Shown: positions 188 through 4,666 of the stretch, piece by piece
Position numbering within the stretch: the stretch's first letter is position 1
Layout of the letters: each line of letters begins with the position of its first letter
UHGV virus genome: UHGV-1635749
Source of the DNA: a virus
Reading direction: 5' to 3' (one strand)
Length of the DNA: 15,654 bases
The notes under the pieces: generated by a model
What the model was told of the DNA's origin: nothing
Database searches by the model: none
The model's input: only the letters and a program-made list of their open reading frames with translations
Program-made: the position numbers and the translations under genes

Positions 188-192
188 TGGGA

Positions 193-219
193 TTTCTCCT
201 GTTATGAAAACAGGAGAAA
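193..219. promoter_or_regulatory. 27-nt near-perfect palindrome (11-bp arms) overlapping the invertase Shine-Dalgarno sequence
   Basis: tttctcctgtt-atgaa-aacaggagaaa: positions 193-203 are the exact reverse complement of 209-219. The AGGAGA ribosome-binding site of the invertase sits in one arm. Candidate operator or RBS-sequestering hairpin. Confidence 0.35.
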
Positions 220-263
220 CGGCGAAGTATCGCCAGATTTTTGGGGGTTATAAAAAAGGTTCC

Positions 264-449
264 TTACTGAGTAGACACATCTGCCGGCTTAATGAATTTT
301 TTCCCATCATATAACCAGCCGATACCGACACCTCCTTCAGCCAGTACAGCAATGCCATCCGTTGGCTTCCACTCGGATTCCCCATCCCACACGGCGATAT
401 TGACGACAACACCGTTATTTACAACCGCATAAATTTTGTTTTCATTCAT
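264..449 (-). CDS. Small hypothetical protein (61 aa from ATG at 449) in the position usually held by a tail fiber assembly gene
   Basis: ORF MNENKIYAVVNNGVVVNIAVWDGESEWKPTDGIAVLAEGGVGIGWLYDGKKFIKPADVSTQ. Its ATG (447-449) overlaps the tail fiber stop TAA (449-451) by 1 nt. The track's longer form starts at GTG 464. No family recognised. Confidence 0.45.
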   Translation of the reverse strand: MNENKIYAVVNNGVVVNIAVWDGESEWKPTDGIAVLAEGGVGIGWLYDGKKFIKPADVSTQ

Positions 450-1714
450 TACTGATACTCCCACACAATAATATAACCCTGATAACCGTCATTACCTCTG
501 GACGTTGCACTGTTTGCCGGACTGTATTTACCCGTTCCGCCTTTTCCATAAACGCCAATCATGGTCGAAACTGTGCTTTCGAGTCCGACTGCCATATCAT
601 CACCAAGACCAAAAGCTGCACATGACGGGGAGTGAGAAGCAGAGTGAAACAGAAGTCCGGCCCCTGTTGGTGGTGAAGCTTCGGCGGCACTGCCACCTGA
701 GAACGGAGGAACCTGCTGACGTTGTTGTGAGCCTTTGCCGCCCGGACAAACGAGTAATGAACCAAAACTTGTCTGACCGCCATCTCCACCAGAACCACCA
801 GGCCCCGCACCGCCCACACCACCGGCGCCAATCGTTACAGGTACAGATTCAGGAATATCCTGATAATAAAAAGCCTTTCCGTAGGCTCCAGGAGAACCAG
901 CTGCGCTGATGCCACAGTTATTTGAGGCTGTTGCTGATAAATTGCCACTGGCACCACCACCGCCAACGGCTTCCACTATAATTTTCGTTACACCGGGTGA
1001 TTTGTAGTACATCCCAGAAGTACCGAATACCTGCACTCCAAGTAAACGTCCTGAGCCGTCCCCCAGTGTCAGATACTGAAGCATATCAGGAACATTTTCT
1101 TTACTGATAAATTGACGGCCAGCGAGCGTCAGCGCTGATACTGCCGGAACATTTTTACCAGAAAAAAACAGAACCTGATCAGCGTCAGTTTGCGGCCCCA
1201 GCGTGGAAAGTTTTGTCAGCGTATCGCTGAGGGGTTGTTTGTTTTTTAGCGCTTCTATAAGACCAAGGTATGTGAGAATGTCAGCAATAGTCTTTTTCCC
1301 AATAATGTCACGGCCAACAGAAGTTAAATCAGTCTGTGATGCTGTATCAGTTCCAGTGAAATACGGGAGTTTATTTGCACCGGTTGCGAGCCCAGCCAAT
1401 GCCGTCAGCGTGGCATCAAGCGCCTGGAAATCTTTCCCGAAAGCGGTCCCCATTTTGGATATAAACCCGTTCAGGTCTCCATCATCAAGCACATCCAGCC
1501 CGCTTTTGTTGGCGGTGTACTGCGCCAACGCTGCCGCGATAAAGCTGGCTTGCCGAATAGCTTTGTTGACCTGTGCGCTGGATGCTTTACCTGCCGTAAA
1601 CCCTGAAAGCAGAGCCGGAAGTGCTTCCCAGTCAGCTTGTGAGGTGACGTTAGCGTTCGGATCAAGCGCGAAAGGTTTAAAGTTGTTTATTGCCATTAGA
1701 GTATTGTCCCCCAT
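449..1714 (-). CDS. Tail fiber protein (421 aa; alternative ATG at 1696 gives 415 aa)
   Basis: Residues about 95-153 (nt about 1256-1432), ATLTALAGLATGANKLPYFTGTDTASQTDLTSVGRDIIGKKT...YLGL, match the conserved segment I recall in P2 gpH / Mu S / P1 S-type tail fibers. Gly-rich C-terminal half. Follows the gpI-like gene as in P2 (V-W-J-I-H). The ATG at 1696 overlaps the upstream stop by 1 nt. Confidence 0.85.
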   Translation of the reverse strand: MGDNTLMAINNFKPFALDPNANVTSQADWEALPALLSGFTAGKASSAQVNKAIRQASFIAAALAQYTANKSGLDVLDDGDLNGFISKMGTAFGKDFQALDATLTALAGLATGANKLPYFTGTDTASQTDLTSVGRDIIGKKTIADILTYLGLIEALKNKQPLSDTLTKLSTLGPQTDADQVLFFSGKNVPAVSALTLAGRQFISKENVPDMLQYLTLGDGSGRLLGVQVFGTSGMYYKSPGVTKIIVEAVGGGGASGNLSATASNNCGISAAGSPGAYGKAFYYQDIPESVPVTIGAGGVGGAGPGGSGGDGGQTSFGSLLVCPGGKGSQQRQQVPPFSGGSAAEASPPTGAGLLFHSASHSPSCAAFGLGDDMAVGLESTVSTMIGVYGKGGTGKYSPANSATSRGNDGYQGYIIVWEYQ

Positions 1715-3572: not shown

Positions 3573-3926
3573 TTATGCCTCGCTTGTTACAGTCGTCTGG
3601 CCGTAGATTGTGTCAATGGAGGAAGTGAAAGTGACGCGGCGGCTGGTGCCGTCATAATTGGTATCGAAGGAAAGAATCGACAGAACGCCCGGTGTATCCT
3701 GTATGCGTTCGCGTATAGCCAGGATGTAGACATCTGATCGCTGCTTCCCAAGCACTGACTGAACATACGGCGTGCCTTCCGTCAGATCGAGAAACCACTG
3801 ACCGCGCCACAGCTCGAAACGGGTTTTTACGGCCTGGGCGACACATTCCGGACTGTCGATAAGGAAAGTATCGTCACCCTGGCCGAAAGTGTAATCGCCT
3901 TCAGTATCTTCGCGACGGTATCGCAT
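3573..3926 (-). CDS. Baseplate wedge protein, gpW/gp25-like (117 aa)
   Basis: About 115-aa ORF sandwiched between the spike and the J-like gene, the canonical gpW position. Its start overlaps the spike stop. Confidence 0.6.
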   Translation of the reverse strand: MRYRREDTEGDYTFGQGDDTFLIDSPECVAQAVKTRFELWRGQWFLDLTEGTPYVQSVLGKQRSDVYILAIRERIQDTPGVLSILSFDTNYDGTSRRVTFTSSIDTIYGQTTVTSEA

Positions 3927-4666
3927 TATTGCGGCCCTCCAGTAGTTCCCCCGCCTGTCTGAACTCCGCCATGTTTATGCGTGGCGACACTTATACCTGA
4001 AGCTGTCACATCATTCGTTACCGTAACCGGCCCAAGCATCGTCGCAGTACCACCACTTTCTCCCATTCCCTGAGACAGGTTACCGTTAATCGTTACGTAG
4101 CCGTTCAGCGTGATAGTCGGGGATGTGATTGTCGTTCCACCTTCAGCCGTAGCCGTAAGCTGGCCCGGCGTTTTAATGGTGATGTTATGTCCTGCAGCGA
4201 CCTCTACGAACGCCGCGCCATCATCGGTTCGCAGCTGCGCGGCGCTGGTACTGATACCGCTGATTTTCTGTGCTTGCGACTGCGGGCCAACGATGGCGAA
4301 CGCATCAGATAAGTCATGCTGGCGCGGGTCGACGGTCTCCTGAACGCCGCCGCTCTGCCACCAAAAATCGATGCAACGGTCAGCAAAAATCAGGAGGCAC
4401 TCGTCGCCTTCTTTTACCGGAAAGGTCAGCGTGCAACCGCCGCCGCGCGGGAAGATGACCGGCACATCCACCAGCGGTTTTAATTCGGTGGAGTCGTCGC
4501 CAACAATACCGCGAAGCGCCACTTCTACTGTGCAGGTTACAGCGTCAGGATCGAACGACTGAATGATGCCAGGCATCGCCACGCGCATTTGGGTAGACAC
4601 TGAATCGGCAATGGCCTGGGCGGTCTGCTGCTCGCCGCCGATCTGTGATTGAGTTGGAATTGGCAT
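3926..4666 (-). CDS. Baseplate central spike, P2 gpV-like (246 aa from ATG at 4666)
   Basis: The C-terminus ...SVATHKHGGVQTGGGTTGGPQ resembles the P2 gpV C-terminal HTHKH...GGTTGSP motif as I recall it. The ATG at 4664-4666 follows the terminator T-tract with GGGG upstream. The track's longer ORF (to 4840) would read through the terminator and the cassette's 3' end. Confidence 0.75.
   Translation of the reverse strand: MPIPTQSQIGGEQQTAQAIADSVSTQMRVAMPGIIQSFDPDAVTCTVEVALRGIVGDDSTELKPLVDVPVIFPRGGGCTLTFPVKEGDECLLIFADRCIDFWWQSGGVQETVDPRQHDLSDAFAIVGPQSQAQKISGISTSAAQLRTDDGAAFVEVAAGHNITIKTPGQLTATAEGGTTITSPTITLNGYVTINGNLSQGMGESGGTATMLGPVTVTNDVTASGISVATHKHGGVQTGGGTTGGPQ

Follow-up and report, generated by a model that had tools for sequence, protein, structure and literature searches.

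Our analysis of a 15,654-nt stretch of viral DNA (hereafter, the window) leads us to propose, with moderate confidence, that a perfect 27-nt palindrome upstream of a Gin-like serine DNA invertase gene acts as an mRNA hairpin that occludes the Shine-Dalgarno (SD) sequence of that gene and so limits invertase translation. The palindrome, which spans 193 to 219, reads TTTCTCCTGTT-ATGAA-AACAGGAGAAA on the plus strand and has perfect 11-bp arms, a 5-nt spacer, and its center at base 206, exactly as claimed in an earlier note on this DNA. In the minus-strand RNA, it forms a 12-bp stem consisting of 11 Watson-Crick pairs and one G.U pair (G220/T192), closed by a 5-nt loop. The invertase SD, AGGAGA (195 to 200, read from 200 to 195), is fully base-paired within the 3' arm and is followed by AATCCC and then by the ATG at 188 to 186, which gives an SD-ATG spacing of 6 nt.

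The invertase leader and its two hairpins

The minus strand is the coding strand for all genes in the invertase-fiber part of the window. A DUF2612 baseplate gene (2376 to 1696; Pfam E = 2e-45) is followed by a tail-fiber gene of 421 aa (449 to 1714), the translation of which comprises a constant N-terminal part, up to positions 1253 to 1278, and then a variable, Gly-rich C-terminal part. Among the glycine-rich stretches of this variable end (449 to 1252) are GGGG.. and GAGGVGGAGPGGSGGDGG. A small ORF at 264 to 449, located between the fiber gene and a crossover site described below, encodes 61 aa from the ATG at 449 to 447 (61 to 66 aa, according to whether it is read from 449 or 464 down to 264) and is presumed to be a fiber accessory or chaperone gene. 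Neither the small ORF (264 to 449) nor the variable fiber C-terminus (449 to 1252) gave a Pfam match. After a gap of 75 nt, the invertase gene starts at the ATG at 188 to 186, co-directional with the fiber gene and the small ORF; the window end cuts it after its 5' 62 codons (1 to 188), which were identified from their translation. A full-length homologue from phage HK225 shares the same 62 residues and has Resolvase and HTH_7 domains. Since this homologue matches Gin invertase structures (E = 3e-56) far better than gamma-delta resolvase (E = 3e-25), the recombinase of the window is a Gin/Hin-type DNA invertase.

We compared the palindrome with the rest of the window and found it to be the sole perfect stem of at least 11 bp (loop 0 to 12) in all 15.6 kb, and 20 whole-window shuffles produced only one such stem in total. 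Folding of the RNA from 221 to 186 (36 nt) gave -16 kcal/mol (z = -6.1), and none of 200 shuffled sequences was equally stable. Because the palindrome is unique in the window, rare in shuffles, and folds with this z-score, a chance origin is excluded. In addition, the invertase SD is the least accessible among the 22 genes of the window, with a mean P(unpaired) of 0.01 over positions -14 to -5, as compared with 0.19 to 0.74 for the SD regions of the other 21. The hairpin is thus stable beyond chance and holds the SD in its stem at a functional spacing, both of which are expected of an SD-occluding hairpin, and occlusion of the ribosome-binding site, one of several mechanisms raised in the earlier note, emerges as viable and as the best supported.

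A second, smaller GC hairpin lies at 221 to 234 on the minus strand (GGCGA-UACU-UCGCC, with a sixth pair possible at 220/235). Its plus-strand sequence, GGCGA-AGTA-TCGCC, is present as previously described, and the scan scored the element as terminator-like on both strands. It folds with -8.8 kcal/mol (z = -3.6) and has a stem of 5 to 6 bp. The T-rich stretch said to follow it on the minus strand does exist, but this U-rich RNA is in fact the 5' arm of the large hairpin. More specifically, the tail GUUUCUCC contains an interrupted U-run with 4 U in its first 8 nt and passes a loose terminator scan. One-sided variants of the small hairpin found in relatives (C-G to U-G and G-C to G-U) keep pairing solely in the minus-strand RNA. 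The small hairpin is less conserved than the large one and is broken or absent in three leaders (L204, L242, and L268). It is possibly a weak terminator or a 5' stabilizer; the suggestion of weak termination agrees with the terminator-like scans, but the short stem and the interrupted U-tract count against it.

An Rfam scan of positions 1 to 600 returned only two sub-threshold chance matches. Several further candidates were considered and rejected. A LexA box is approximated by CTGT-N7-ACAG within the palindrome, one base short of CTGT-N8-ACAG. A plus-strand mini-ORF starting from the ATG in the loop (204) would be without an SD, and its start varies with the loop (ATGAA, GTGAA, GTAAA, or ATAAA). 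An RNA thermometer was dismissed, as the stability of a perfect 12-bp stem is much too high for one. The long-range UAUAACC-GGUUAUG pairing that appeared in a 101-nt fold is not kept in other leader classes, and the likeness of the leader to Mu gixR was not significant.

Occurrence and conservation of the leader

The same leader was found upstream of a Gin-like invertase family in ~150 public loci. Window DNA from 1 to 261 shares 95 to 98.5% identity with the corresponding invertase DNA of phages HK225, phi80, and mEp237 and of Citrobacter phage Omnitron, and the invertase-region DNA also occurs in ~160 E. coli genomes. In the phi80 record JX871397, both arms of the palindrome are annotated as a repeat, "IR3," upstream of pinL, with no function given. 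The phi80/Lula IR3 is the same element: the DNA is 95% identical, the arms are of 11 bp, and the position relative to the ATG is the same. It differs from the window in its loop and at the 11th pair, which is C-G rather than T-A.

A search of IMG/VR with a palindrome pattern retrieved 97 stretches, 90 of which lie immediately upstream of an invertase start of the form MIYGY[AV]RVST. When the pattern was relaxed so that the inner stem and the loop could vary freely and was run against metagenomes, 59 of 74 matches were invertase-linked; this pattern was meant to catch covarying stems, and it returned invariant stems alone.

For the analysis of conservation, we used 40 unique leader sequences covering -76 to +150. 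Both 10-bp arms are invariant throughout this set, except in L034, where one T of the 5' arm is replaced by C. Variation is instead seen at two of the five loop positions, in the flanks, in the stretch that separates the crossover site from the hairpins, and at many third-codon (synonymous) positions. At the 11th pair, window-type leaders have T-A and leaders of the phi80 lineage have C-G, a compensatory double change, and a recombinant leader (L241) has U.G there. Single stem mismatches occur as singletons alone (L034 and L218). Across the alignment, 98.5% of the cells are paired and 9 of the 12 pairs never vary; compensatory change is confined to a single pair in one lineage. The observed covariation score was attained by 29 of 500 shuffles.

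Some leaders (L004, L061, L062, L067, L068, and L009 to L012) carry the motif CTGATAACC(A/T)GG ~45 to 60 nt upstream of the invertase ATG. The motif is common to certain palindrome-bearing leaders and to unrelated leaders of invertases that are 72 to 74% identical, and it is missing from the window, which has CAAAAATCTGG. It could serve as a promoter or as a binding site.

The crossover sites and their cassettes

The earlier note treated the whole of 188 to 263 as a 76-bp structured leader. The two hairpins do lie within this interval, but its outer end (248 to 263) is the invertase-proximal half and core of a crossover site, which the note missed along with its partner at 1253 to 1278. The invertase-proximal 26-bp site (248 to 273) reads TTATAAAAAAGG TT CCTTACTGAGTA on the plus strand, with its core at 260 to 261. 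Its outer half (248 to 259, TTATAAAAAAGG) is conserved in ~100 loci, and its degenerate inner half (-1.9 bits) is formed by the end of the small ORF, stop codon included. An upstream alignment of ~100 loci revealed the conserved motif TTCTCCCAAACC AA CCTTTTTTATAA, the AA core of which starts 73 to 74 nt before the ATG in class-1 loci. Upstream of this core, the loci are unrelated to one another, and homology breaks exactly at the AA/TT core. Indeed, when positions 150 to 275 were compared by BLAST with E. coli genomes, most matches ended at query position 112 (i.e., window position 261), whatever gene lay beyond.

An inverted partner was found 1.2 to 3.2 kb upstream in ~40 relatives (e.g., TTCTCACATACC TT GGTTTGGGAGAA). 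In the window, the partner lies inside the tail-fiber gene at 1253 to 1278 and reads TTCTCACATACC TT GGTCTTATAGAA on the minus strand, inverted with respect to 248 to 273. It encodes ..ILTYLGL|IE.. at the junction between the constant and variable parts of the fiber, and in its outer half it does not differ from the partner sites of L026 and others. We built a half-site matrix from 35 real half-sites and scanned the window with it. The best-scoring position was 1253 to 1278 (22.5 bits), followed by 248 to 273 (8.0 bits), and no arrangement of sites with 25-bp spacing scored well in the window. On the same matrix, the consensus scores +17.5 bits and the proximal half-site +9.9 bits, whereas the two palindrome arms score -8.7 and -7.0 bits. 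In short, the site at 248 to 273 has a conserved position, a 2-bp core, an inverted partner, and a homology breakpoint at its core, and the palindrome at 193 to 219 lacks the 26-bp/2-bp-core geometry, the half-site consensus TTxTCxxAAACC, and an inverted counterpart.

The family sites fit the published 26-bp crossover consensus in the form in which PMC4134206 quotes it from Sandmeier 1994. The sites at 248 to 273 and 1253 to 1278 and those of the relatives are also like the gix, cix, and hix sites of the Gin, Cin, and Hin systems, as those are presented in PMC4134206, in having 12-bp half-sites of the TTxTCxxAAACC type. Further points of likeness are the 2-bp AA/TT core, the arrangement as inverted pairs around fiber cassettes of 1.2 to 3.2 kb, and the location at the constant/variable junction of the fiber. 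The palindrome is unlike gix, cix, and hix in its odd center and in its mismatches at the inner half-site positions, and the proximal site of the window is unlike them in its degenerate inner half. In L026, the sites enclose a fiber C-terminus and a chaperone together with a second, oppositely oriented set, all located after the DUF2612 gene that is also present in the window, and this is the classical layout of the Mu G and P1 C segments.

Six loci, namely the window (262 to 1252), L003, L057, L060, L062, and L067, were observed to have a single cassette of ~1.0 to 1.15 kb in fixed orientation. Each consists of a fiber C-terminus and a small ORF, and the cassette is a different one in each locus. 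These cassettes are bounded exactly by both cores, with constant TTCTCACATACC TT on the left and AA CCTTTTTTATAA on the right, and their inner half-sites are degenerate. The right junction falls just past a stop codon (TA[A/G]GG|AA) in five of the six, the exception being L060. The single cassettes possibly arose by invertase-mediated deletion or by cassette exchange at quasi-sites, and the window prophage carries a single, probably locked, fiber cassette. A close relative of this prophage is L003 (E. coli 873.10, NZ_CP061754, locus 3623 to 4188), in which the invertase is annotated as frameshifted; since the invertase there occupies the extreme end of the prophage, adjoining host torT, no invertible DNA lies beyond it.

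Proposed action of the palindrome and alternative readings

We propose that the palindrome would act as RNA, in whatever transcript extends into the invertase gene. The upstream anti-SD arm, UUUCUCCUGUU, would pair with the SD-carrying arm, AACAGGAGAAA, and the resulting 12-bp stem-loop of -16 kcal/mol would end 5 nt before the AUG. Binding of 30S subunits would then be rare, and very little invertase would be made; a low level is to be expected given that the job of the enzyme is rare DNA inversion. The small GC hairpin, together with the U-rich anti-SD arm, may end part of the read-through from the fiber genes or stabilize the 5' end. We infer that the region is transcribed in the minus orientation, from a weak promoter or by read-through, and that its translation is reduced. 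A promoter scan gave no minus-strand candidate from 190 to 280, and the candidates picked manually, TATAAC and TTTATA-17-GATACT, are weak and not conserved.

The RNA role is supported by the tight linkage of the palindrome to the invertase family, the conserved arms, and the wobble-compatible variants of the small hairpin on the coding-strand RNA. In addition, the SD lies in the 3' arm of a hairpin in at least two unrelated invertase leaders, those of the L074 class and of Klebsiella phage KP12 (in a stem with a G.U pair), although the stability of these hairpins does not significantly exceed that of shuffles (z = -1.3 and -2.3). SD occlusion was absent from the leaders of Mu gin, P1 cin, and one Yersinia phage, and it is therefore not a universal feature of invertases. 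The start codon of Mu gin is GTG, and the annotation of P1 cin gives only a 3-nt "potential" SD; as cix lies downstream of cin in P1, the P1 leader is not comparable. A need for low invertase expression may be shared by these systems and met by differing means.

Translational attenuation by mRNA secondary structure was reportedly quantified by de Smit and van Duin on the ribosome-binding site of the MS2 coat-protein gene. Like leader stem-loops that sequester an SD, the palindrome forms a stable hairpin that has the SD in its 3' arm and stops a few nucleotides short of the start codon. The predicted stability is far past the range in which translation is expected to drop steeply, and a stem of -16 kcal/mol would nearly silence translation. 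The palindrome is unlike such stem-loops in that it has no evident opening mechanism: our inspection found no evident upstream ORF, alternative pairing, or weak, imperfect stem. The RNA role is also opposed by two features of the alignment. The covariation is thin, with its one compensatory pair in one lineage, and the invariance of the arms, which includes 4 bp free of SD constraint, exceeds what hairpin stability by itself demands. Such total invariance fits sequence-specific recognition by a protein equally well.

That fit is the starting point for reading the palindrome at the level of DNA, as an operator or pseudo-site that an invertase dimer would bind without recombining it, either repressing transcription of its own gene or using it as an accessory site. 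We consider this unlikely, even though several features of the sequence are in its favor. With the form TTCTCC-N13-GGAGAA, the palindrome spans 25 bp, as against 26 bp for the family crossover site, TTCTCC-N14-GGAGAA; the outermost 6 bp of each arm are TTCTCC, the form in which the inner half-site most often occurs; and both arms are invariant at every position, including those outside the SD. Its 12-1-12 geometry also resembles that of resolvase res site III, and its center lies 54.5 bp from that of the crossover site. Resolvases regulate their own genes through res sites whose half-site spacing varies, and site III of Tn3/gamma-delta res has the 12-1-12 (25-bp) geometry. Beyond the 25-bp geometry, what the palindrome shares with Tn3/gamma-delta res sites is its distance of ~54 bp from the crossover center and its place between the crossover site and the recombinase gene, and this is a resemblance alone: unlike the res systems, the enzyme of the window is a Gin-type invertase rather than a resolvase, and we know of no accessory sites in the Gin-type invertase subfamily. 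The half-site match is likewise partial. The arms fail the half-site matrix, matching it in the outer TTCTCC alone, and the earlier note's preference for an operator finds no support in the tests made here. TTCTCC itself is largely dictated in the arms, as it is the complement of the AGGAGAA SD. The inner six positions lack the A-tract (TGTTTT or TGTTAT, not CAAACC), and a G.C pair stands at a position where, as reported for Hin and hix, A/T is needed for minor-groove contact. Moreover, neither a homology breakpoint nor a partner copy ever occurs at the palindrome. In a related reading, the palindrome would be a 25-bp pseudo-crossover site that arose from a real half-site, can no longer support catalysis, and is bound by an invertase dimer for autoregulation or as an accessory in synapsis. 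In its favor, window positions 214 to 227 (minus strand, TTCGCCGTTTCTCC), which comprise the 3' arm of the small hairpin and the 5' arm of the palindrome, match TTTGCCGCTTCTCC, an inner half-site with its fiber-gene flank, at 12 of 14 positions (shuffle p of about 0.006 to 0.018, for a comparison chosen post hoc). The match hints that the leader may descend from a crossover half-site. To our knowledge, the Gin/Hin subfamily relies on crossover sites and the Fis enhancer alone, and we regard this version as improbable. Operator and RNA roles are not mutually exclusive.

The possibility that the region is mainly a transcriptional insulator, in which the small hairpin and its U-rich tail, aided by the large hairpin, serve as an intrinsic terminator and pairing of the SD is incidental, strikes us as quite doubtful. 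The segment from 235 to 220 plus UUUCUCCUGU was flagged as terminator-like, and read-through from a late fiber operon could be stopped here before the invertase, given the shared direction of the fiber gene, the small ORF, and the invertase in the window. This reading is weakened by the 5- to 6-bp stem of the small hairpin, its -8.8 kcal/mol, and the 4 U among the first 8 nt of its tail; by the sequence after the large hairpin, AUCCCAUG, which lacks a U-tract; and by the fact that the small hairpin, broken or absent in the three leaders named above, is the less conserved of the two elements. Since the upstream DNA of canonical relatives is antisense to the alternative fiber cassette, a need for insulation specific to the layout of the window does not arise. 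Finally, the palindrome could be taken for an invertase crossover site itself, being of roughly the right size, adjoining the invertase gene, and ending in TTCTCC. We hold this to be extremely improbable and effectively refuted. The palindrome is centered on a single base (206), has no 2-bp core, and fails the half-site matrix. Each locus has a single copy of it, without an inverted counterpart; homology breaks at 260/261 rather than at 206, and a bona fide site with partners stands at a conserved position in ~40 relatives. The earlier note had likewise concluded that the palindrome is not a crossover site of the hix/gix type, and in this it was right.

The practical value of these results lies in annotation. 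The true crossover sites are those at 248 to 273 and 1253 to 1278, and the palindrome is neither. As a sequence feature, it is already known as the phi80 IR3, and its function appears to be that of a standard SD-occluding leader hairpin. Were the palindrome an operator, the Gin/Hin paradigm would gain an autoregulatory or accessory site; were it the pseudo-site, it would be a res-site-III-like element in the Gin/Hin subfamily, and one sequence would act both as a DNA operator and as an RNA mask of the SD. By the sequence evidence at hand, the palindrome is probably an ordinary regulatory feature that keeps the invertase scarce. The frequency of inversion depends on the amount of invertase, and the palindrome may set that level in a widespread family of enterobacterial prophage invertases that includes phi80 pinL.
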